Positions 2,888 through 48,230 of a stretch of 64,000 nucleotides of DNA are shown here, piece after piece. The DNA is from Alteromonadaceae bacterium. GTDB taxonomy: Bacteria > Pseudomonadota > Gammaproteobacteria > Enterobacterales > Alteromonadaceae. The DNA lies in NCBI GenBank assembly GCA_016765535.1, contig JAESPQ010000123.1:880-64879 (forward strand), written 5' to 3'. A program made the position numbers and the translations under genes. Under the pieces are notes generated by a model, which made no database searches, was not told the origin of the DNA, and worked only from the letters and a program-made list of their open reading frames with translations. Positions within the stretch are counted from its first letter, which is position 1. Every line of letters begins with the position of its first letter.

Positions 2888-3049
2888 TTAGTTTGTACTC
2901 ACTTTTAAAATAACACTAACGGCAGAACAAGGAAAAGCCAGCGTTAAAGAGCTTAATCGTAATCCCATTTAATTTGTACTCACTTTTAAAATAACGCTAA
3001 CGGCAGAACAAGGAAAAGCCAGCGTTAAAGAGCTTAATCGTAATCTCAT
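2888..3049. repeat. two tandem 81 bp diverged copies of the ccmB 3' terminus
   Basis: TTA(A/G)TTTGTACTCACTTTTAAA recurs at 2888, 2969 and 3050 (period 81). Each copy reads on the minus strand as ATG..TAA and encodes M(R/G)LRLSSLTLAFPCSAVSVILKVSTN. The CcmB C-terminus is SLTLAPFAVGAALKVSTN. Confidence 0.9.
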
Positions 3050-3808
3050 TTAATTTGTACTCACTTTTAAAGCAGCGCCAACTGCAAATGGAGCCAGCGT
3101 TAAAGAACCAAAAAATAGTGCGGCAATTATAGCAAGTTGCCCACCATAGGGTAAACCTAATGCTGCGGTATCAATAGCGCTAGTCGCAAAAATCAATACT
3201 GGAATATACAACGGCAACACCAATAAACTTAATAACACACCGCCTTTTTTAATACCAACCGTTAAGGCAACACCAATAGCACCTAATAAACTTAATACGG
3301 GTGTACCTAATAATAAGGTTAACATTAATGCACCATAACTCTGTTCATTTAAATGTAACAAAACAGCCAATAAAGGCGCAACAATGATTAATGGCAATCC
3401 TGTAATTAACCAGTGGGCGACAATTTTGGCTAAGACTAAAATAAACACAGGATGAGGACTTAGCAACATTTGCTCCAACGAACCATCACCATGATCGGCT
3501 TTAAATAATCGATCCAGTGATAACAACGTAGATAATAGTGCTGCCACCCAAATAATACCGGGGGCAATTCTGCTTAACGTACTCGCTTCTGGACCTATGC
3601 CTAAAGGAAATAAAGTAACGACAATAATAAAAAATAATAACGGATTTAAAATATCGTCTTTATGACGCAAAGCAATAGTTAAATCACGCTTAACCATTAA
3701 ATTAAAAGCGCCACGATAGGAAAGTTTATTGCGTGACTCTATCGTAATTGGCAAAGTGTTTTTTTCGCTATCATGTTTTTCAATTGAATTTTCGCTAGCT
3801 TTATTCAT
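3050..3808 (-). CDS. ccmB: heme exporter permease CcmB
   Basis: Six-TM hydrophobic protein between ccmA and ccmC. Confidence 0.9.
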   Translation of the reverse strand: MNKASENSIEKHDSEKNTLPITIESRNKLSYRGAFNLMVKRDLTIALRHKDDILNPLLFFIIVVTLFPLGIGPEASTLSRIAPGIIWVAALLSTLLSLDRLFKADHGDGSLEQMLLSPHPVFILVLAKIVAHWLITGLPLIIVAPLLAVLLHLNEQSYGALMLTLLLGTPVLSLLGAIGVALTVGIKKGGVLLSLLVLPLYIPVLIFATSAIDTAALGLPYGGQLAIIAALFFGSLTLAPFAVGAALKVSTN

Positions 3809-3828
3809 AAATTTAATTTCCTGCTAGC

Positions 3829-4515
3829 TTAATAAAAACGATACGCTAAAGTGATTTTTTTCAAATTTTCTTTAGCAATAGTTAAATCTTGATGGGTGGT
3901 TAAAACAACACAACCGCCCTGTTCTGCATGTTGTAAAAACAACTGTTCTAAATTGGCAACACCTTGTTTATCAATAGCAGTAAAAGGTTCGTCTAAAATC
4001 CAAATTTTTGCTTTATTAACCTGCTTTTGTGAAGAAAAAAGCCGAGCTAAAGCAATACGTCGATGTTGTCCTGCACTTAAATGCGACGCTAAACTATCTT
4101 CAAAGCCTAATAAATTAACTGTATTTAAGTTTTCATCTACCGTATCCGTATTTAAACCATGCAAGGCTAAATTAAAAGTTAAGTTTTCTGCCGCTGTCAT
4201 TTCACCTTTAACACCAGCTAAATGACCTAAATATAAAAGGTTTTGATGATATAATTCGCTATCATCATGAATATTTTGCTCTAATTTTTGTTCTTGTATA
4301 TTTGCACTAAAAAACACTTCGCCATCATAAGGTTGAGACAAACCCGCTAAAATACGCAACAAACTTGTTTTTCCCGCGCCATTAGGCCCTTCTATTTGCA
4401 CAATATCACCAGCATTTACTTGCAGATTTAATTGTTCAAACAAAATTCTATCTTCCCGAATACAGGTAAGGTTTTTAGCGCTAAGCAAGGGGAGTTTTTT
4501 AGACAATGTGATCAC
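3829..4515 (-). CDS. ccmA: heme exporter ATP-binding protein CcmA (GTG start)
   Basis: Walker [13 protein letters not shown] signature LSAGQHRR, Walker B WILDEP. The codon at 4513-4515 is GTG. Confidence 0.9.
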
Positions 4516-4817: not shown

Positions 4818-6836
4818 ATGATCCCTGAGCTAGGCCATTTTGCCTTAATTACCGCCTTAGCCTTTGCTATTTGTTTAGCCGTCATTCCAATGCTTGGCTT
4901 ATATACTAATCAACCTAAACTTGCTGCTTATGCAAAACCGTTTGCTTTCGCTTTATTTGCCTTTACTGCAATTAGCATTACTATATTGGGTTATAGTTTC
5001 GTTATTGACGATTTTTCAGTGTTGTATGTAGCAAGCCATTCTAATACTCACCTACCTTACTACTTTAAAATTAGTGCAGTTTGGGGCGGGCATGAAGGTT
5101 CGTTATTATTATGGATATTCTCATTAACTTGTTGGACATTAGCGGTAGCCAAATTTAGCAATAATGTTGATCAAGCCTTTATTACCCGCGTATTATCTAT
5201 TATGGGTATTATTGCCGTTGGTTTTATTGCCTTTACTTTACTCACTTCTAATCCTTTTGAACGTTTATTACCTAATATTCCTAGCGAAGGACGAGATTTA
5301 AACCCTTTACTACAAGATATTGGTTTGATTGTACATCCACCATTATTGTATATGGGCTATGTTGGTTTTTCGGTGGCTTTTGCTTTTGCGGTTGCCGCCC
5401 TATTAACGGGTAAAATGGATGCAGCATGGGCGCGTTGGTCACGCCCTTGGACAGTTGCCGCATGGTCTTTTTTAACCGTAGGAATTGCATTAGGGAGTTG
5501 GTGGGCTTATTACGAACTAGGCTGGGGCGGCTGGTGGTTTTGGGATCCCGTTGAAAATGCCTCTTTTATGCCTTGGTTAGTAGGTACTGCACTTATTCAC
5601 TCATTAGCGGTAACAGAGAAACGTGGTACCTTTAAAAACTGGACTATTTTATTATCTATTTTTGCTTTTAGCTTGAGTTTATTAGGCACGTTTTTAGTGC
5701 GCTCTGGCGTATTAACCTCTGTACATTCATTTGCTGCGGATCCTGAGCGCGGTATTTTTATTCTTTATTTACTCGCAACAACCATTGGCGGCTCTTTAAT
5801 TTTATTTGCCTTTAAGGCCAGTAATGTTGCTAGTTTTAGCCGTTTTGCTTTATATTCACGCGAAACTGCACTTTTAATTGCTAATATTATTTTAGTCACT
5901 GCAGCAGTTACCGTTTTGCTTGGTACGCTTTACCCGTTATTAGTAGATGCACTGCATTTAGGTAAAATATCAGTAGGCCCTCCGTATTTTAATGCGGTAT
6001 TTGTACCTATTATGAGTTTACTGTTTGTCTTTATGGGTATTGGCCCCCTTATTCGTTGGAAAAAAGCGAAAAAAGGTGAATTACGTAAACAGCTATCCTT
6101 AATATCTATTGGCAGTATAATTTTTGGTCTTGCTTTCCCATTTTTATATGCGGGTGAATTTAACTTAAAAGTAAGTATGGGCATTATATTAGCCTGTTGG
6201 GTTGCATTGGTTATTCTTAAAGAATTTCGTAATCAGCGAACCGCTAATCAAGGAAAATTACCACTAAGTCAATGGGGTATGACCTTCGCGCACCTTGGCA
6301 TCGCTATCACTATTGTAGGTATTACTTTAGTATCAAGTTATGAAAATGAAATCAATGTAAAAATGGCCTTACATGATAAGGTTGAAATTTCAGGTTATCA
6401 AATTGAATTTGAAGGCATTAAAAAAGTTATAGGTCCAAATTATAGTGCCGACCAAGGACAAATGAAGCTTTATAAAAATGAAAAATACATTGGTTTAATG
6501 CAACCAGAACGTCGTGTTTATCGAGTACAAAGTATGGGCATGACCGAAGCAGCTATTAACCCTGGTTTATTTAGAGATGTATATATTGCGCTTGGCGATC
6601 CGCTAGATAATGGCGCATGGTCAGTGCGTGTTCACTATAAACCGTTTGTCCGTTGGATTTGGTTAGGCGCATTATTTATGGGCTTTGGTGGTTTTCTCAC
6701 TATGCTAGATAAACGCTATCGCAGTAAAAGTAGTCAACAAGCAAAAACACGTTTACAAAATAGTGCAAACAAAACAAATACTGTAGCAACGGCTAGTACA
6801 ACTGCAGCAGCCCCGGCTTCATCAACGAGTTGTTAA
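4818..6836 (+). CDS. ccmF: cytochrome c heme lyase subunit CcmF
   Basis: 672 aa polytopic protein with the WWD motif WGGWWFWDPVEN. GGAG RBS upstream. Confidence 0.95.
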   Translation: MIPELGHFALITALAFAICLAVIPMLGLYTNQPKLAAYAKPFAFALFAFTAISITILGYSFVIDDFSVLYVASHSNTHLPYYFKISAVWGGHEGSLLLWIFSLTCWTLAVAKFSNNVDQAFITRVLSIMGIIAVGFIAFTLLTSNPFERLLPNIPSEGRDLNPLLQDIGLIVHPPLLYMGYVGFSVAFAFAVAALLTGKMDAAWARWSRPWTVAAWSFLTVGIALGSWWAYYELGWGGWWFWDPVENASFMPWLVGTALIHSLAVTEKRGTFKNWTILLSIFAFSLSLLGTFLVRSGVLTSVHSFAADPERGIFILYLLATTIGGSLILFAFKASNVASFSRFALYSRETALLIANIILVTAAVTVLLGTLYPLLVDALHLGKISVGPPYFNAVFVPIMSLLFVFMGIGPLIRWKKAKKGELRKQLSLISIGSIIFGLAFPFLYAGEFNLKVSMGIILACWVALVILKEFRNQRTANQGKLPLSQWGMTFAHLGIAITIVGITLVSSYENEINVKMALHDKVEISGYQIEFEGIKKVIGPNYSADQGQMKLYKNEKYIGLMQPERRVYRVQSMGMTEAAINPGLFRDVYIALGDPLDNGAWSVRVHYKPFVRWIWLGALFMGFGGFLTMLDKRYRSKSSQQAKTRLQNSANKTNTVATASTTAAAPASSTSC

Positions 6837-6839
6837 ATT

Positions 6840-7394
6840 ATGAATAAAGCAATACGATTTATCCCTTTAATATTAGTCATTATTCTAGGTGTGGTGTTAT
6901 ATCGAGGTTTATCATTAAATCCACAATCAATGCCCTCTGCATTAGTGGGTAAGCCTATGCCAGACTTTAAATTAACTACACTACTTGACGAAAACAAAGT
7001 GGTCACTAAAGCTGATTTAAAAGATGATATTATCTTGATTAATGTCTGGGCTACTTGGTGTGTATATTGTAAATATGAGTTTCCTGATTTGATTGATATC
7101 GTAAAAAAAGAAGGCATTACTTTATACGGAGTCAACTCAAAAGATGATCGTACAACCGCAAAGCAATGGATTGATAAATTAGGTAACCCCTATGTTTTTT
7201 CAATGTTTGATGAAGAAGGTAGTTTAGGCTTAGATATGGGTGTATATGGCGCACCTGAAACCTTTGTTGTTGACCATCACGGCATAATTCGCAAACGTTT
7301 TGCGGGCGTTATTAACCCAAATACTTGGCGAGTAGAGTTTAAACCCTTACTTGCTCAGCTTAAGCAAGAACGTTTAGCGGAACAAGGTAAATGA
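6840..7394 (+). CDS. ccmG: thiol:disulfide interchange protein CcmG/DsbE
   Basis: Thioredoxin fold with WATWCVYC active site and N-terminal anchor. Confidence 0.95.
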   Translation: MNKAIRFIPLILVIILGVVLYRGLSLNPQSMPSALVGKPMPDFKLTTLLDENKVVTKADLKDDIILINVWATWCVYCKYEFPDLIDIVKKEGITLYGVNSKDDRTTAKQWIDKLGNPYVFSMFDEEGSLGLDMGVYGAPETFVVDHHGIIRKRFAGVINPNTWRVEFKPLLAQLKQERLAEQGK

Positions 7395-39441: not shown

Positions 39442-39526
39442 GCCGGTGTGATGAAATTGGTATACATGGTTGATTCAAAATCAACTGCCTTCGGGCGTGG
39501 CGGTTCGAGTCCGCCCACCGGTACCA
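39442..39526 (+). tRNA. tRNA-Leu(CAA), complete, carried just inside the island's left end
   Basis: GCCGGTGTGATGAAATTGGTATACATGGTTGATTCAAAATCAACTGCCTTCGGGCGTGGCGGTTCGAGTCCGCCCACCGGTACCA, 85 nt. Relative to the split host copy it has compensatory D-stem (ATG/CAT) and anticodon-stem (GTTGA/TCAAC) changes. Confidence 0.9.
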
Positions 39527-39535
39527 CTAATAACA

Positions 39536-39566: not shown

Positions 39567-40004
39567 TTACATCAATCCTTTTTCATTTAGACTTACAAAA
39601 CCGTCCTCGCCAATAATAATATGGTCTAAAACCTTTATATCCAAAAGTTCAGCCACTTTCTGCATCCTCTTTGTAAATTGAATATCGCTTTGGCTTGGTG
39701 TTGGCACACCTGACGGGTGATTGTGCGCTAATATGACAGCAGGCGCGTTTATAATGACGGCTGTGCGTAATACTTCCGATGGCCTTAATGAAACTGAATT
39801 GACTGTGCCACTGGCGACAACTTCGTAATTCATAATGGTGTGCTGATTGGATAAGTTGATAACCACAAACTTCTCTTTTGGTTCAAACTTTAAGAAGTTA
39901 AATGCGCTATAAACTTTATGTGGTGCGTCAAGTAATTTGCCAGTGATATCACAATCAACTTGAGTAAACTTATAACGCACCTCTATTTCTCGTAAGATTG
40001 CCAT
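39567..40004 (-). CDS. RadC-like JAB/MPN domain protein
   Basis: HNHPSG JAMM-type motif in ...VILAHNHPSGVPTPSQSDIQFT. The 145 aa short form is typical of mobile-element RadC. Confidence 0.85.
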   Translation of the reverse strand: MAILREIEVRYKFTQVDCDITGKLLDAPHKVYSAFNFLKFEPKEKFVVINLSNQHTIMNYEVVASGTVNSVSLRPSEVLRTAVIINAPAVILAHNHPSGVPTPSQSDIQFTKRMQKVAELLDIKVLDHIIIGEDGFVSLNEKGLM

Positions 40005-43967: not shown

Positions 43968-44930
43968 TTAATAAGGTGTTGGGGTTTTGTGATTTCGAAT
44001 GCTTCGTGCCTTATCTTTAAATTTTGGTTCTATAGCGGAGAGTGAGTTAAGTCTGCCTAGGAGCCTATTTTTTAGGGTTTCTGGCATATAAGGGGTGTCT
44101 TTGAGGATTTTCCATTGTTCTATATCTTGATAGACATTTCTGTGCTGTTCGTTTTTAACAAATTGTTTGCCGTCTTTCAGTATGACGCCTGTAATTACCT
44201 TTGCATCATCCTTGGCGTATAGAACCGTTTTTACCGGATGTATTATATGCCCGTGACGTTCAACAATTCTCTTAATTGTTGATATAAATAATTTATTTAA
44301 TTTATCCCCTGAAAAAGTTATATCATCAACATAAACAGACATTTTTATATCATGCTTTACTGCTATTTTTTCTAATTCCAAAAACATCCCAATATTAGCC
44401 CACAAAGCCAAAGGCATACTTATTCTGCTACCTGTTGGAAGATGCTCATTATAGGTGCAAATTTTTGATAATATGTCAGATACATCTGAAGAACACTTCA
44501 TCTTTCTATTGAAAAAGTTAAATAAATGAGTCCTAGAGGTCGATGGGAAAAAAGAACGGATATCAGTTGTTAATACTTTATGGTGCCCTATATGGATGCG
44601 CGCATTCGTAATATGTGAGTGCTTCGCTCTACCAGAATGTACAAAATCTGGTATTTTTATCCGACACAAGAGACTGGCAATTCTCGTATGGACTTTATCT
44701 AACTCAAGGTTCGGGTGCTCAATTATCCGTTTTTTACCATTACTATTTACTTGCTCAAATACATTGTAATTGTCAGTATTTTTAATTAGAGCATTTAAAG
44801 TTACAGGTTCAAGTAAAAGTAAAGCCGCAAGTTTACGTTTAGTTGTTAGTTTATATAAAGGAGAGTCAGAAATTTCGTATGCTTTGTTTAATGTTTTAAT
44901 CTTAAACTTGGGTCTTTTTTGTTTCTTCAC
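43968..44930 (-). CDS. retron-type reverse transcriptase (GTG start inside the HTH gene)
   Basis: TTDIRSFFPS (motif A), LPTGSRISMPLA (motif B), YVDDITFS (motif C). Retron-associated signatures ITNARIH (NAxxH) and KVITGVIL (VTG-like). 320 aa with no extra domains. Confidence 0.85.
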   Translation of the reverse strand: MKKQKRPKFKIKTLNKAYEISDSPLYKLTTKRKLAALLLLEPVTLNALIKNTDNYNVFEQVNSNGKKRIIEHPNLELDKVHTRIASLLCRIKIPDFVHSGRAKHSHITNARIHIGHHKVLTTDIRSFFPSTSRTHLFNFFNRKMKCSSDVSDILSKICTYNEHLPTGSRISMPLALWANIGMFLELEKIAVKHDIKMSVYVDDITFSGDKLNKLFISTIKRIVERHGHIIHPVKTVLYAKDDAKVITGVILKDGKQFVKNEQHRNVYQDIEQWKILKDTPYMPETLKNRLLGRLNSLSAIEPKFKDKARSIRNHKTPTPY

Positions 44931-45213
44931 GCTCAGTTACCCATTCCATGATATTTAATATCTTTGCTGCAAAAAAACGTTTGAATTTTTCTGGTATTTT
45001 TTTCTTGTCTTCTAATGACTCTGAAAAGAAAACTAATGAAGACATAGGTATATCAAATTGCTTTGAATATTTTTCGAGCAATTCTACACTTGCTGGTTTT
45101 TTACCAGATTCAATTTCACTCAAATAAGATTTAGAGATAGCAAGACTTTCGGCTAACTCAACTTGTTTTAAATTATGAAATTGTCTAATAATCTTTAATG
45201 CTTTATTTATCAT
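44902..45213 (-). CDS. XRE-family helix-turn-helix protein
   Basis: LKQVELAESLAISKSYLSEIESGKK, a canonical HTH_XRE. AAGGA RBS. Its 3' end overlaps the RT start by 29 nt. Confidence 0.85.
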   Translation of the reverse strand: MINKALKIIRQFHNLKQVELAESLAISKSYLSEIESGKKPASVELLEKYSKQFDIPMSSLVFFSESLEDKKKIPEKFKRFFAAKILNIMEWVTEREETKKTQV

Positions 45214-45229
45214 GTGTATATTCCTTAAA

Positions 45230-45265
45230 AACTAAGGGGAACACTTGATATGAGCGCCCTTAGTT
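45230..45265 (-). promoter_or_regulatory. 9 bp-stem palindrome between the small ORF and the HTH gene (attenuator or operator candidate)
   Basis: AACTAAGGG (45230-45238) pairs with CCCTTAGTT (45257-45265) around an 18 nt loop. On the minus strand it is followed by TTTTT and the HTH RBS. Confidence 0.5.
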
Positions 45266-45413
45266 AACCGAAACAATTTAATAACCTCCAAATCCAATAC
45301 CCAACTCTCATTAAGAGTTTGATAGCAGTCCAGAGTTTTCGTCGTTTCTTCTTCTTTAGGTCTTCAGTATCAAGTGCCTGCCAATAATCATTAATTCTTT
45401 TTTGCATTTTCAT
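45264..45413 (-). CDS. small ORF (about 47-49 aa) with basic centre and hydrophobic Trp-rich C-terminal tail
   Basis: MKMQKRINDYWQALDTEDLKKKKRRKLWTAIKLLMRVGYWIWRLLNCFG. GGGAG lies 7 nt before the second ATG. The track's longer version starts at a TTG. Confidence 0.35.
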   Translation of the reverse strand: MKMQKRINDYWQALDTEDLKKKKRRKLWTAIKLLMRVGYWIWRLLNCFG

Positions 45414-45663
45414 GCTCCCATATTTACTGTTTCGCAAAATTGCTAGCAGTTTCGCCCAAATATAGGTGAGAGTTATTGGCAAATACCCCTCGTTTTACAC
45501 ACCGGGTTCGCCCGCGGTGTGTGTCCCCTACCAATCTTGCTACATAGTTAAGTTAAGTTATCTGATGAGCACATGTGGGGGAAAAAGGTTAGAGAATTCA
45601 AGATTCTCCTCGAATGCAAGCATTCAGTTCTAAATGGCGATTTTCTCTCTTTTCTTAATGACG
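45414..45663 (-). ncRNA. candidate structured leader / RT-associated ncRNA
   Basis: Downstream of a near-consensus promoter. It holds four consecutive hairpins, including the GC-rich ACACACC-GGG-TTCG-CCC-GC-GGTGTGT stem (45497-45522), and an (AGTTA)3 tract at 45546-45560. No ORF with an RBS. Confidence 0.35.
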
Positions 45664-45669
45664 CTTAAG

Positions 45670-45698
45670 ATACTAGAGGTAGTTTTCGTCGATGTCAA
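45670..45698 (-). promoter_or_regulatory. sigma70-type promoter for the small ORF-HTH-RT unit
   Basis: The minus strand reads TTGACA (45698-45693), a 17 nt spacer, then TAGTAT (45675-45670). Confidence 0.6.
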
Positions 45699-45726
45699 AT
45701 AAATTCGCAAATAGCGAACTTTTTGT

Positions 45727-46623
45727 TTAAGAAAAGCAATCAATATGTGAGATATGTATGAGGTTTTCTTTTATGCCTAAGTATATAAGCGCACTTAAGT
45801 GAGAGTGCTCATCTTCGGCATCATAGTAACTTAAATGCCATTGCACGGATTGTTTGTCGATATTGTTTACGATATTGGCAAAGTACTTAATATCTACTTC
45901 TGATATAGAGTGACCTAATACGTAAATATGCCTTATTGAATTTAACTTTTTAAAAAACAATTCGTTATCATTAATTAAGTCTTGAGCAGGTTTGAATGTT
46001 TTTTTAAAATAATCATCTACAATTCCATACCCCTCCATTACTCTAGTATCCCAGTCCTCATCAAATTGTATGTTAGCATTTTCAGTATAAGTTTTTGATG
46101 ATGACCAATCGTGCCCTAATACCAACTCACTATCCTTGTTTATTGCTTTGCCGTGTATATGTAATATTCGCTCGCATGGAACATCATAAATTTTATTTAA
46201 TGTATCGGTATAATTGAATGATAGAAAAAAAGCAGACGGTGAAATAACTTTAATTTTTTTCTGGGTTGGTATTCGTAATTCAAGTACCCAGTTAAGTAGG
46301 TGCCTTTTTAATTCTGAGGACAATGAGTCAGTGTATCGTTCAACCTCTATTTGAAAACTATGATGCCCACTATCACTCCAGTTTTCATCGCTGTATGATG
46401 CTAGATACTGCATTGCATCATCGATTAATGTATCAACATCCACACTTGATAATGCCGATTCAAGATTATTCCAGTTCTCTGAAATCATTAAATATTTTTC
46501 AATTGAGTCAGCAACATCGCAATCGATTAATTTGATGTATTCTTTAAAATCACTATAACGTGATTTTATTCCGTGATGAATATCGAAACCGTTACCTAAA
46601 ATATATAAAATATCATTCTGCAT
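45727..46623 (-). CDS. AbiH-family abortive infection protein
   Basis: MQNDILYILGNGFDIHHGIKSRYSDFKEYI, FNYTDT, HIHG and YVLGHSISEVDIKYF match the AbiH signature. I set the start at the ATG at 46621-46623, which forms a TAATG overlap with the integrase stop. The track's TTG at 46632 is less likely. Confidence 0.8.
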   Translation of the reverse strand: MQNDILYILGNGFDIHHGIKSRYSDFKEYIKLIDCDVADSIEKYLMISENWNNLESALSSVDVDTLIDDAMQYLASYSDENWSDSGHHSFQIEVERYTDSLSSELKRHLLNWVLELRIPTQKKIKVISPSAFFLSFNYTDTLNKIYDVPCERILHIHGKAINKDSELVLGHDWSSSKTYTENANIQFDEDWDTRVMEGYGIVDDYFKKTFKPAQDLINDNELFFKKLNSIRHIYVLGHSISEVDIKYFANIVNNIDKQSVQWHLSYYDAEDEHSHLSALIYLGIKENLIHISHIDCFS

Positions 46624-47912
46624 TACAGGCAACCACGTTTTTTATATTCAGCATTCCATTCATTCATCCATTTAGCCGTATCTTTGGCTAACTCTGCTTT
46701 TTCTTCTTCTGTATCTTGCACTATTAGTTTAACGGGGTCGGTATTTGTAAAATCAACACCCGATAGTTCATTAGTAAACATTTCAGGCATTACATGGCTG
46801 TAATGTTGCTCTAACATTTGAATACTCGTACCACATTGCTTAGCGATAATTTGTGCAGGTAATTGATTCATTAATTGCCATGTGATGTACGTATGCCTTA
46901 AGGAATAAAGTGTACGTTTACCACGTGGTGATTCTTTTAATTCATTCTCAATAATTAATTTATCAAATGCTCTGCTAAGTTCTTTTGTCTTACTGCCATC
47001 TTCTAATTTAAATAAAAGGTCTTTTGGTTTTCTGTTTGGAAAACGCTCTCTTAATCGTTCAAATGCCCACAATACTTCTTCACGGCATACTACTGTTCTA
47101 GCACCCGTGTGCTTTGTGGTTTTGCCTTTGCGAACTGTAATTAAAAATACAATTTTATCGTATTTCTGCCTTAGTTCTATATCACCCCAAGTTAAGTTTT
47201 CCATTTCAGTACCAGGTCTAATACCTGAGTAAACAGCAATATCCATATAGTCTTGTAATAGTTCACGTAACATATGAGTATTTTGTTTTCTGCTATTACC
47301 TATGAAACTAGGTAAGGCTGATATTAATTTTTGATATTCTTCTTTATTAAATGCAGCCTTGCGTTGACCATCAGACCCTGCAGAAGCAGTTAGTCTGGGT
47401 ATTTGAATTGGTAAAATCCACTTGTTTAATAGTGCTTCTTCAAAGACGCGCATCATTGCGGCGTTATGGTTGAGTAGGGTTGATTTGGCAGGTGTACGTT
47501 TTAATTGTTCAATACGCCAAACATCAAATTCTAATAATCGTTGATTATCAATGCTGGTGATATAATTGTTATCAAAGTACGGAATATGATACTTATTTAA
47601 TACGCCGATATAGTCATTGTATGACTGTTTTCCTGTGCCTTGTGCAAGTTGCTGTTGCATACGTTTAATTGCTAAATCAGCAACGCTTTTAAAGCGCTTG
47701 GTATTAATAGGAACGTTATTTTCTAATTTGAGTTTGTATTCGATAAAGTGCTGATGGGCGGCAGGTATTGCTTGTTCTAGGTCTTTCTTTTTTGTAGTCT
47801 TAGTATACCAATTACCATACAACACAAAGCGAGCATACCAGCGTAGGCTGTTTGCTTGTTTATATATGTATAACTCGTCAGTTATATCGTGTCGTGCTAC
47901 TTGTTTACTCAT
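46623..47912 (-). CDS. int: tyrosine-type site-specific integrase (P4-like size, 429 aa)
   Basis: C-terminal catalytic motifs LYSLRHTYITWQL (HxxR) and MLEQHYSHV (Tyr). Adjacent to the attR tRNA fragment. Confidence 0.9.
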   Translation of the reverse strand: MSKQVARHDITDELYIYKQANSLRWYARFVLYGNWYTKTTKKKDLEQAIPAAHQHFIEYKLKLENNVPINTKRFKSVADLAIKRMQQQLAQGTGKQSYNDYIGVLNKYHIPYFDNNYITSIDNQRLLEFDVWRIEQLKRTPAKSTLLNHNAAMMRVFEEALLNKWILPIQIPRLTASAGSDGQRKAAFNKEEYQKLISALPSFIGNSRKQNTHMLRELLQDYMDIAVYSGIRPGTEMENLTWGDIELRQKYDKIVFLITVRKGKTTKHTGARTVVCREEVLWAFERLRERFPNRKPKDLLFKLEDGSKTKELSRAFDKLIIENELKESPRGKRTLYSLRHTYITWQLMNQLPAQIIAKQCGTSIQMLEQHYSHVMPEMFTNELSGVDFTNTDPVKLIVQDTEEEKAELAKDTAKWMNEWNAEYKKRGCL

Positions 47913-48028: not shown

Positions 48029-48082
48029 ATTCAAAATCCGTTGCAGCAATGCGTGGCGGTTCGAGTCCGCCCACCGGTACCA
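48029..48082 (+). pseudogene. 3' half of the disrupted host tRNA-Leu(CAA) (attR side)
   Basis: ATTCAAAATCCGTTGCAGCAATGCGTGGCGGTTCGAGTCCGCCCACCGGTACCA. Joined to 39257-39295 it reconstitutes an 85 nt tRNA-Leu(CAA) with all stems paired. Confidence 0.85.
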
Positions 48083-48230
48083 TTATTTTTAACGATTAGT
48101 CCCTAAAATGACATGGTTTGTTATCTTAGTTTTTTTATTTACTTCCCTTTGTAAATAACCAGCTACCTCCTCCGACCTCTTTGTGTTAAATTAATATTCA
48201 ATCACTCTATTTAAAAATAAAATTAGCACT

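Follow-up and report, generated by a model that had tools for sequence, protein, structure and literature searches.

The segment between positions 43968 and 45718 of the window (the whole 64,000-nucleotide stretch of DNA that was analyzed) is almost certainly a complete Type VI retron of Colwellia piezophila (Table 1). Type VI retrons have been defined by a clade 3 reverse transcriptase (RT) and a helix-turn-helix (HTH) protein of the Cro/C1 type (91 to 110 amino acids [aa], cluster 2_1), whose gene usually lies upstream of the RT gene or overlaps it, and by a small accessory protein (SP) that is also encoded (Mestre et al. 2020, PMC7736814). Every defining feature of this type, as given by Mestre et al. 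and by the PADLOC families RT_VI and HTH_VI, was found at the Colwellia locus, and the gene order (ncRNA, SP, HTH, RT) is the same as the published one. The kind is already known, having been classified in 2020 and dissected in 2025-2026, and the locus adds one member to it. A first-pass annotation of this DNA had pointed to a retron-type RT accompanied by an XRE-HTH protein, to a small ORF whose product ends in a hydrophobic tail, and to a promoter-proximal RNA with structure; all of these are present on the minus strand. Its proposal of a new, uncharacterized RT-based system fails, because the RT and the HTH protein both fall inside Type VI over their full length and the known set of partners matches exactly; the profile-HMM placement that it had suggested as a check thus puts the RT in a described family. 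The fuller explanation that we favor, a Type VI retron that works like Retron-Vpa2 and whose HTH protein also represses its own promoter, has a probability of roughly 0.6.

Table 1. Elements of the Colwellia piezophila locus, in window coordinates
Feature	Position	Strand	Basis or remark
Type VI retron unit: operator (predicted), promoter, hyRNA with SP gene, HTH, RT	43968-45718	minus	
Retron RT, 320 aa, GTG start	43968-44930	minus	PADLOC RT_VI, motifs
Cro/C1 (XRE)-type HTH protein, 103 aa	44902-45213	minus	PADLOC HTH_VI, Pfam HTH_3
Predicted hybrid RNA (hyRNA), ~437 nt	45227-45663	minus	homology, covariation, MFE
CAAGTGTT, pairs with GGCACTTG (45371-45378, SP codons 10-13)	45240-45247	minus	closes the SP-coding arm
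SP gene, 47 aa, MQKRINDYWQALDTEDLKKKKRRKLWTAIKLLMRVGYWIWRLLNCFG, predicted toxic effector	45264-45407	minus	conserved ORF, SP profile
Anti-SD strand CCTATATTT (45458-45466), then second GGGCGAA (45451-45457)	45451-45466	minus	covariation
ncRNA strands of two long-range helices	45474-45490	minus	covariation
Short perfect hairpin CACACCG...CGGTGTG, loop GGGCGAA (45507-45513)	45496-45523	minus	candidate template of the msDNA 5' stem-loop
Long imperfect hairpin with C-run/G-run base, main candidate msd (msDNA template)	45524-45587	minus	position
msr-like hairpins GAATGC/GCATTC (45612-45625) and GGAGAAT/ATTCTCT (45591-45609)	45591-45625	minus	covariation
a1-like arm AGAGAG, tentatively paired with a2-like CTCTCA (45467-45472)	45645-45650	minus	89% of cells paired
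Promoter, sigma-70 type: TTGACA (45693-45698), 17-nt spacer, TAGTAT (45670-45675)	45670-45698	minus	consensus match
Palindrome TTCGCTATTTGCGAA, predicted HTH operator	45704-45718	minus	5 nt upstream of the -35 box

The RT matches PADLOC RT_VI with an E value of 3.6e-100 over profile positions 1 to 278 of 279, with RT_III-A as the second-best PADLOC family (1.7e-44), and the nearest solved structure is that of the retron Ec86 RT (1.3e-15). Motifs A, B, and C and the two retron signatures named in the first-pass annotation were located between aa 107 and 248, as ITNARIH at aa 107 to 113 (NAxxH, with NARIH at 109 to 113), TTDIRSFFPS at aa 121, LPTGSRISMPLA at aa 164, YVDDITFS at aa 200 (YVDD at 200 to 203), and ITG of the (I/V)TG type at aa 246 to 248. 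Residues N109, A110, H113, T247, G248, and D202/D203 are unchanged across 30 relatives, and, as judged from the sequence, the catalytic motifs (YVDD, NAxxH, and (I/V)TG) are intact. The ORF coordinates agree with the earlier observation that the GTG start lies 29 nt within the HTH gene, giving an overlap of 29 nt. Single-protein queries were insufficient to reach relatives of the unit: such a search of genomes matched only Colwellia piezophila NZ_KB905161.1, and one of metagenomes gave no match. Relatives were reached with an RT alignment as the query. The RT has 354 relatives at an E value of ≤1e-20. The NCBIfam retron models (St85, Ec67, and TIR) scored far under their cutoffs, so NCBIfam holds no name for this retron type.

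The HTH protein matches PADLOC HTH_VI (6.4e-38, profile positions 1 to 91 of 92), Pfam HTH_3 (3.1e-11), and PADLOC Control_protein (1.2e-7), and its nearest solved relatives are PezA, a PbsX-family regulator, ClgR, C.BclI, and SinR. Its gene lies directly upstream of the RT gene or overlaps it in 121 of 136 related loci; in the remaining loci, the contig end cuts the locus or the RT is distant.

The mini-ORF of ~48 aa seen in the first reading is real and conserved, with 47 aa as the likely length. An equivalent ORF of 44 to 56 aa that ends 27 to 54 nt ahead of the HTH gene is found in 110 of 113 loci (the distance from the SP stop to the HTH gene is 50 nt in Colwellia), and the Colwellia SP matches a profile of 70 other SPs with an E value of 1.2e-13, the best of 2,000 shuffles reaching 1.2. 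The likely SP start is the ATG at 45407, 7 nt past GGGAG. Starts giving 72 aa (TTG) or 49 aa (ATG) are disfavored: of 76 loci, 74 have a Shine-Dalgarno (SD) sequence ahead of the short start, and the reading frame above this ATG is unconserved, with a median open length of 11.5 codons. For the Colwellia lineage, the evidence favors a conserved SP product of the short form, ~47 to 56 aa. The SP has a net charge of +8 and a C-terminal helix with a hydrophobic moment of ~0.6. An acidic C-terminal tail found in most relatives is missing in Colwellia and its two closest relatives, where the stop comes ~20 nt earlier; since this short tail is common to relatives with RTs 65 to 70% identical, it is a maintained trait of the lineage. 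By analogy with Retron-Vpa2 and Retron-Sen3, the SP is predicted to be toxic, and the idea that the small peptide is the effector agrees with experiments on these two relatives (10.1101/2025.10.22.683967; 10.64898/2026.04.27.721009).

Upstream of the SP gene lies a leader of ~255 nt holding only mechanical ORFs, in keeping with the ORF-free leader of ~250 nt described earlier. An Rfam scan of 43.0 to 47.0 kb at an E value of ≤10 gave only chance matches to snoRNA and Xist and no curated family. The predicted hyRNA, taken to be a single transcript because there is one promoter, has a minimum free energy (MFE) z-score of -2.9. A sequence profile built from 25 relatives covers the Vibrio parahaemolyticus locus L010 nearly end to end (E = 7e-13, nhmmer) and matches an Escherichia coli locus at 6.7e-28. 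Nine hyRNA helices have covariation support. Two helix sets were tested, with 92.3% and 83.7% of cells paired; slid controls gave 37 to 52%, and none of 500 shuffles was as high.

The first-pass annotation had found no msr/msd region with a1/a2 repeats, which reflects the limits of reading by eye: comparison among relatives brings out a GAGAG/CTCTC pair, msr-like hairpins, and a long msd-like stem. The two msr-like hairpins have 89% and 92% of cells paired, and five pairs in each helix are altered on both sides. At the position of the candidate msd, a hairpin of 41 to 89 nt occurs in 25 of 25 relatives, with unrelated sequences, and is the positional counterpart of the 63-nt msDNA region of Vpa2. 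It is followed in 25 of 25 relatives by a perfect stem of 7 to 13 bp with a GCGA-type loop and differing stem sequences, which parallels the 23 additional nt that the Vpa2 msDNA has at its 5' end. The a1/a2-like pairing shows three compensatory pairs (e.g., GGGAG/CTCCC and GAGAA/TTCTC) among 25 sequences; since its arms are mostly invariant, covariation backs it only weakly, and it is put forward tentatively, perhaps as a pseudoknot with the long-range helices or as an alternative to them.

Further helices involve the SP start and coding region. The anti-SD strand pairs with AAATATGGG (45417 to 45425), which contains most of the SP Shine-Dalgarno sequence, with 82% of cells paired and 9 of 9 pairs altered on both sides; for the three riboregulator helices taken jointly, the value is the 83.7% given above, compared to 37 to 48% in their slid controls. 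In another helix, TGCCAATA (45474 to 45481) pairs with TATTGGCA (45379 to 45386, SP codons 8 to 10), with 99% of cells paired and 7 of 8 pairs altered on both sides, and the CAAGTGTT/GGCACTTG helix has 88% of cells paired and 6 of 8 pairs altered on both sides. The ncRNA also reaches past the SP stop, where CCCT (45235 to 45238) pairs with AGGG (45487 to 45490; 97% of cells). The two GGGCGAA copies covary, with 6.36 nt shared within loci versus 5.31 between loci (0 of 2,000 permutations as high). After CAAGTGTT come CCCCTTAG and a T-run near 45227, a putative terminator; the 25 relatives conserve GTGTTCCCCTT with a T-run behind it. The 9-bp palindrome reported in the first pass is present (45257 to 45265 and 45230 to 45238, overlapping the SP stop) but is not a conserved helix, having 51% of cells paired, as in slid controls; its 3' arm belongs instead to the conserved AGGG/CCCT pairing.

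The TTGACA-N17-TAGTAT promoter proposed earlier is the best promoter-like match between 43.8 and 46.8 kb (10 of 12 consensus positions) and predicts a transcription start near 45663. The invariant palindrome TTCGC-N5-GCGAA is the most informative block upstream of the unit among 56 distinct loci; 57 of 91 non-identical loci have it, TTGAC follows it in every case, and the TTGAC box is conserved among relatives at a constant offset from it. Of the 84 distinct loci in which 400 nt or more of sequence precede the SP start, 56 carry the palindrome, and 51 of these have an HTH protein at least 53% identical to that of Colwellia; the other 28 lack it, and in 27 of them the HTH protein reaches at most 49% identity. 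That the palindrome tracks the HTH clade suggests that the HTH protein also autorepresses the promoter. Of 56 loci, 23 have a second site, GTTGAC-N5-GCGAAC, fused with the -35 box, and in many relatives a second degenerate site lies in the spacer. The clade with the E. coli and Vpa2 HTH proteins has no palindrome common to it; L010 has a different one, TCAAGTTGCA-N6-TGCAACTTGA, at the same position. On these sequence comparisons, the odds lean slightly toward a Type VI HTH protein that binds DNA in a sequence-specific manner and represses the promoter of its own retron.

Such an arrangement recalls type II toxin-antitoxin modules with an autorepressing XRE antitoxin (e.g., PezA-PezT) and the controller (C) proteins of restriction-modification systems: a small XRE-HTH gene shares an operon with a toxin gene, and a palindrome adjoins or overlaps the -35 box of the protein's own promoter. 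[quoted passage not shown] Neither mechanistic preprint mentions transcriptional control by the HTH protein (10.1101/2025.10.22.683967; 10.64898/2026.04.27.721009). If it occurs, Type VI retrons would gain a layer of transcriptional control, and the toxicity and msDNA rise in HTH mutants could be due in part to transcriptional derepression. The candidate operator at the promoter is directly testable.

Retron-Vpa2 is a Type VI retron of V. parahaemolyticus (Zhang et al., bioRxiv 10.1101/2025.10.22.683967). Its hyRNA of ~470 nt has three arms, the 3' end folding back, and its msDNA consists of 63 nt plus 23 nt of 5' extra sequence, the latter being required for activation; msDNA is seen only upon a trigger or upon loss of the HTH protein, and a 7-nt direct repeat has been proposed as the docking site for msDNA (10.1101/2025.10.22.683967). 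Trigger-dependent msDNA, msDNA-dependent SP translation, SP toxicity, and abortive infection have been shown only for Vpa2 (10.1101/2025.10.22.683967). We took L010 to be Vpa2, as it encodes a 55-aa SP with K15, I39, F43, and F45 and an HTH protein with R7, with the caveat that its RT reads YVDD where the Vpa2 paper writes YADD. Both loci have a promoter, a hyRNA (msr-msd plus SP gene), an HTH gene, and an overlapping RT gene; identity to the Vpa2-type locus is ~50% for the RT and ~46% for the HTH protein. In both, the hyRNA has three arms, with the SD sequence and start codon in stem-loops and the 3' end folded onto the ncRNA, an msd of a long and a short hairpin, and a 7-nt direct repeat. 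One Colwellia GGGCGAA copy lies in the candidate msd loop and the other in the riboregulator loop, as in the Vpa2 mechanism. Both SPs are short, with a basic center and an aromatic hydrophobic C terminus, but in the profile comparison the similarity of the two scored 13 bits, which is the level of decoys and not significant, and their proposed relation rests on position, composition, and surrounding RNA. The Colwellia locus differs from Vpa2 in host and mobile element; unlike the Vpa2 SP, its SP ends right after the hydrophobic helix, without a GGDT-like tail, and its C-terminal helix is strongly amphipathic, a property that has been described in Sen3-type SPs but not in Vpa2.

As read from the sequence and the comparison with relatives, one promoter drives a predicted hyRNA of ~440 nt carrying the msr-msd template and the gene for the 47-aa cationic amphipathic SP, with the overlapping HTH and RT genes following. 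The SP Shine-Dalgarno sequence is locked within the conserved anti-SD helix, and SP codons 8 to 13 and the region past the SP stop are paired with the ncRNA. By analogy, a translational switch like that of Vpa2 is somewhat more likely than not at the Colwellia piezophila locus. If the locus behaves as Vpa2 does, RT, HTH protein, and hyRNA would form a resting complex in which the HTH protein restrains reverse transcription and the SP is untranslated, and phage recombination proteins or inhibitors of RecBCD would lead to accumulation of msDNA, presumably templated, again as in Vpa2, by the long hairpin together with the short one that has GGGCGAA in its loop. The TTCGCCC in the 5' stem-loop of the msDNA could then pair with the second GGGCGAA beside the anti-SD strand and open the riboregulator; the SP would be made and, on the Vpa2 precedent, growth of the infected cell would stop (abortive infection). 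To this we add on our own account that the HTH protein may also bind TTCGC-N5-GCGAA at the -35 box, keeping the operon autorepressed.

Gene order alone leaves the mechanism unfixed, since Retron-Sen3, with the same order, works differently. In Sen3, of the cl2075 lineage, both ssDNA and SP are made constitutively, with the HTH protein as a post-translational antitoxin (Garcia-Rodriguez et al., bioRxiv 10.64898/2026.04.27.721009); cl2075 is one of the Type VI SP clusters, the others being cl2760, cl3272, cl3897, and "Large" (Mestre 2020, PMC7736814). If the Colwellia retron worked this way, the HTH protein would neutralize a constitutively made SP, and phage inhibition of RecBCD would free the toxin at an unchanged level of ssDNA. 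We consider this unlikely. Sen3 has been characterized experimentally, and, by its published description, the cl2075 lineage shares with Colwellia the SP-HTH-RT gene order, a structured ncRNA no farther than ~280 nt from the SP start, sequestration of the SP ribosome-binding site, long-range pairing of the ncRNA with the region past the SP stop, RNA structural selection on the SP codons, and an amphipathic C-terminal SP helix, which in Sen3-type SPs is the proposed HTH interface. Moreover, PezA, the closest solved relative of the HTH protein, is both antitoxin and repressor, and an SP from a Yersinia P2 prophage is 49% identical to that of Colwellia. Against it, cl2075 SPs are 75 to 79 aa long with an N-terminal extension of ~25 residues (10.64898/2026.04.27.721009), and, judged from this published description, the extension is absent from the Colwellia SP, whose 47 aa are near the 55 of the Vpa2 SP. 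The SD-sequestering helix and the covarying 7-nt repeat also argue for msDNA-controlled translation, yet cl2075 RNAs sequester the SD sequence too.

A retron that is decaying or silent, carried as passive island cargo without present function, is very improbable. The loss of the acidic SP tail would fit such decay, but the tail is equally short in the relatives described above, all three ORFs (SP, HTH, and RT) are uninterrupted, the catalytic residues of the RT are invariant, and the promoter, predicted operator, SD helix, and both GGGCGAA copies are intact. An RT module outside the known classes, possibly with AbiH as its effector, has next to no likelihood. AbiH (Pfam, 2e-67) is encoded on the strand of the unit and upstream of it, 6 nt from the operator palindrome, and the leader has no Rfam family, but both proteins match Type VI profiles over their full length, and the leader and SP share homology with the hyRNA at the Vpa2-type locus L010. 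The abiH gene overlaps the stop codon of the integrase gene, and, downstream of abiH, a separate promoter serves the unit. In 10 related loci with called genes that were inspected, AbiH was beside the unit in none, and the upstream neighbor varies, including a 134-aa unknown protein, an integrase, a Cap4 nuclease, phage genes, and a HipA locus. This synteny rules out AbiH as a partner, and with it the earlier suggestion of AbiH as an effector candidate; going by sequence context, it is an unrelated neighbor.

With the Type VI assignment, the gain for classification is small, namely one further member, from a deep-sea Colwellia, of a family of hundreds. The covariation map is independent and comes from a non-cl2075 lineage, and it confirms the published hyRNA design in the sequestration of the SD sequence, the helices between ncRNA and SP codons, and the covarying 7-nt repeat. 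In Colwellia piezophila, the unit belongs to an 8.56-kb island that has integrated at tRNA-Leu; the carriers of Type VI retrons include small tRNA-integrated islands as well as P2-like and Mu-like prophages. The host of the locus is a piezophilic and psychrophilic marine bacterium.

The RT matches the PADLOC profile RT_VI over its full length (3.6e-100; second best, RT_III-A at 1.7e-44), and the HTH protein matches HTH_VI, also at full length (6.4e-38). With Pfam, the RT gives a weak RVT_1 match and the HTH protein an HTH_3 match, and against the NCBIfam retron models the RT scores far under the cut-offs. Type VI retrons were defined by clade 3 RTs, a Cro/C1 HTH protein of 91 to 110 amino acids, and small accessory proteins (Mestre et al. 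2020, PMC7736814), and two members, Retron-Vpa2 (10.1101/2025.10.22.683967) and Retron-Sen3 (10.64898/2026.04.27.721009), have since been dissected. Their gene order (promoter, structured ncRNA, small protein [SP] toxin gene, HTH gene, RT gene; 10.1101/2025.10.22.683967 and 10.64898/2026.04.27.721009) is exactly the order found here. Judged by sequence, the locus is another Type VI retron and not a new system; the type was classified in 2020, and its mechanism was dissected in 2025-2026. The first-pass annotation had called it a candidate uncharacterised RT-based module and proposed profile-HMM placement of the RT as a check; that reading fails because the RT belongs to a family already described, and the partners of that family are those seen at the locus.

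The anatomy that had been read from the sequence was otherwise recovered, including the 29 nt shared by the RT and HTH ORFs (ORF listing and direct reading), and all parts of the unit are intact. The predicted promoter is the top promoter-like match across 43.8-46.8 kb, and the quoted RT motifs were located at amino acids 107 (ITNARIH), 121, 164, 200 (YVDD), and 246 (ITG). The public RT annotation (P0001, 310 amino acids) appears, from its length and 97% query coverage, to begin 10 codons 3' of the GTG (44901-44930). Among 30 relatives, K8, K10, and I11 (numbered on the longer form) hardly vary, an argument for the GTG start that overlaps the HTH gene.

Features of the retron unit and its island (window positions)
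Feature	Position	Partner strand or second copy	Strand	Remarks
RT ORF	43968-44930		-	320 aa, GTG start; ORF listing, direct reading
HTH ORF	44902-45213		-	103 aa; ORF listing, direct reading
Small ORF (SP)	45264-45407		-	47 aa, end at 45264; ORF listing, direct reading
Leader			-	~255 nt; direct reading
Promoter TTGACA-N17-TAGTAT	45698-45670		-	10/12 positions
Promoter palindrome TTCGCTATTTGCGAA (TTCGC-N5-GCGAA)	45704-45718		-	5 nt 5' of -35 box; equivalent sites in related loci L002-L128
a1/a2-like GAGAG/CTCTC	45645-45650	45467-45472
msr-like hairpin 1	45620-45625	45612-45617
msr-like hairpin 2	45603-45609	45591-45597
Long imperfect hairpin	45524-45587
Short perfect hairpin	45496-45523
GGGCGAA repeat	45507-45513	45451-45457		copy one in loop of short hairpin; copy two directly after anti-SD strand
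AGGG/CCCT	45487-45490	45235-45238
TGCCAATA/TATTGGCA	45474-45481	45379-45386		partner strand: SP codons 8-10
GGCACTTG/CAAGTGTT	45371-45378	45240-45247		first strand: SP codons 10-13
Anti-SD/SD	45458-45466	45417-45425		strands enclose two small hairpins
9-bp palindrome	45257-45265	45230-45238		overlaps SP stop codon
tRNA-Leu(CAA)	39442-39526
Repeat of tRNA 3' end	48029-48085			just past integrase
Identical core of repeat	39496-39527	48052-48083
ORF adjoining tRNA	39567-40004			145 aa; RadC-like by eye only
AbiH ORF/integrase stop overlap	46623-46632			10 nt, from first TTG of AbiH

We fetched 135 related loci. With the window locus included, 121 of 136 have the HTH gene immediately 5' of the RT gene; in the rest, a contig end cuts the locus or the RT is ≤35% identical. 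Conservation of the mini-ORF and of the leader in such loci had been suggested as a further check. An ORF of 44 to 56 amino acids, ending 27 to 54 nt before the HTH gene, is present in 110 of the 113 loci with enough upstream DNA, and its products have a basic middle part, with an aromatic, hydrophobic helix at the C-terminus. Against a profile of 70 SPs, from which the window and its nearest relatives were excluded, the window protein scores 1.2e-13 (best of 2000 shuffled decoys, 1.2). We therefore read the mini-ORF as the SP gene, so that the earlier guess of the small peptide as effector appears a good one, this being the toxin gene in the Vpa2 and Sen3 order. The predicted SP has an amphipathic C-terminal helix (hydrophobic moment ~0.6) and a net charge of +8; it is 49% identical to the SP of a Yersinia P2 prophage and has no significant sequence similarity to the Vpa2 SP.

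A 72-aa reading from a TTG was rejected in favour of 47 amino acids, because 74 of 76 distinct loci have an SD ahead of the short ATG, and the open frame 5' of that ATG has a median length of just 11.5 codons. The 25 additional codons (45408-45482) reach into the ncRNA helices. The SPs of cl2075, the SP cluster of the Sen3 lineage, are 75 to 79 amino acids long, and ~25 of their residues form an N-terminal extension that lies outside the structural core (10.64898/2026.04.27.721009); by analogy between that description and the 72-aa ORF, their published starts may be over-extended. In the window and its closest relatives, L002 and L003, the SP stop lies ~20 nt earlier than in most relatives (45264-45266; columns 530-560 of the alignment described below), so that these SPs have no acidic tail (e.g., FFEGGDE); the RNA element GTGTTCCCCTT farther downstream is retained.

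For the leader, 25 diverse loci were aligned between the predicted start of transcription and the ATG of the HTH gene and analysed with RNAalifold and explicit pair counts. In two helix sets, 92.3% and 83.7% of cells are paired, versus 37-52% with the partners slid by 1-3 columns; none of 500 shuffles reached the observed values, and changes on both sides occur in 27 of 39 and 18 of 18 pairs, respectively. These results support the helices listed in the table. The stretch from hairpin 2 to AGGG also folds, in every relative, into a long imperfect hairpin of 41 to 89 nt, unrelated in sequence, and a perfect 7- to 13-bp hairpin with a GCGA-type loop. Inspection by eye had found no msr/msd repeats; the comparison gives msr-like hairpins, the long hairpin, and, tentatively, an a1/a2-like pair that is mostly invariant. 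On this covariation, the leader is a predicted retron ncRNA fused to the SP gene. The 9-bp palindrome pointed out earlier is present in the window and is not conserved in relatives; its 3' arm is part of a conserved GTGTTCCCCTT-plus-T-run element.

A V. parahaemolyticus locus (L010) encodes a 55-aa SP with K15, I39, F43, and F45 and an HTH protein with R7. We treat it as Vpa2 because the Vpa2 study mutated just these residues (10.1101/2025.10.22.683967), with the caveat that its RT (3001-3960) reads YVDD at amino acids 201-204 where the preprint gives YADD. The sequence profile of the 25-locus alignment covers L010 (model positions 21-437, E=7e-13) and matches an E. coli locus at 6.7e-28. The Vpa2 hybrid RNA has three arms, with SD and start codon in stem-loops and the 3' end folding back (10.1101/2025.10.22.683967), a description that the window helices fit. 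Likewise, the long and short hairpins parallel the Vpa2 msDNA, which comprises 63 nt from a long stem-loop and 23 nt at the 5' end forming an essential stem-loop (10.1101/2025.10.22.683967). A 7-nt direct repeat is the proposed msDNA docking site (Zhang et al., 10.1101/2025.10.22.683967); here it is GGGCGAA, and its two copies co-vary within loci (0/2000 permutations as high).

If the window retron works as Vpa2 does, the anti-SD helix would block SP translation until phage recombination functions, or inhibition of RecBCD, allowed msDNA to build up; the msDNA 5' stem-loop would then pair with the second GGGCGAA and open the riboregulator, and the SP produced would arrest the cell. The main rival is the mode described for Sen3, with constitutive ssDNA and SP, an HTH protein that acts as a post-translational antitoxin, and monitoring of RecBCD (10.64898/2026.04.27.721009). 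The amphipathic SP helix and the PezA-like HTH protein are compatible with that mode, whereas the short SP and the co-varying repeat speak for the Vpa2 mode; sequence separates the two incompletely.

The promoter palindrome is the most conserved block 5' of the unit (56 distinct loci). Neither the sequence of its arms nor the 5-nt length of its spacer varies, whereas the RNA helices of the same loci change freely with compensation; 23 of the 56 have a second site (GTTGAC-N5-GCGAAC), fused with the -35 box. Whether a locus carries the palindrome follows the HTH clade: the HTH protein is ≥53% identical to the window's in 51 of 56 loci with the palindrome and ≤49% identical in 27 of 28 without it. 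Vpa2 has a different palindrome, with 10-bp arms, at the same position. By analogy with XRE antitoxins and R-M controller proteins, the palindrome is probably the HTH operator, through which the HTH protein would autorepress the retron promoter. The words operator, palindrome, autoregulation, and DNA-binding are absent from both Type VI mechanistic preprints (Vpa2 and Sen3), and this predicted operator is the point that is new relative to them.

The two copies of the tRNA-Leu(CAA) 3' end look like attL (39496-39527) and attR (48052-48083) of a small integrative island of 8.56 kb. Besides the retron and the 145-aa ORF adjoining the tRNA, the island carries a Rep-like gene, genes for a 190-aa tyrosine recombinase and a 429-aa integrase, and AbiH (Pfam 2e-67). 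If the first TTG of abiH is its real start, int and abiH could be co-transcribed, apart from the retron, which has its own promoter 3' of AbiH. Among ten inspected loci with called genes, the gene 5' of the unit varies (a 134-aa unknown, an integrase, a Cap4 nuclease, P2-like or Mu-like phage genes, a HipA locus), which argues that AbiH, once an effector candidate, shares the island with the retron without being its partner.

In L002 (1681-2085) and L003 (1679-2083), a common 134-aa gene without a Pfam match lies ~600 nt 5' of the HTH gene and immediately ahead of the retron promoter, where the window has AbiH. A metagenome contig (L008) carries a 325-aa RT gene twice in inverted orientation (3001-3978 and 6356-6978) with mirrored neighbour genes; the inverted duplication is either genuine or a product of misassembly. 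In this clade, Type VI retrons are often located within Mu-like and P2-like prophages, among morphogenesis genes (L009, Shewanella sp. M16, Mu-like; L011, E. coli; L012, Yersinia; 47 IMG/VR contigs), the P2-like call resting on neighbouring GpA, portal, terminase, GpR, and tail S genes; unlike these prophage-borne relatives, the carrier in the window is a tRNA-integrated island.
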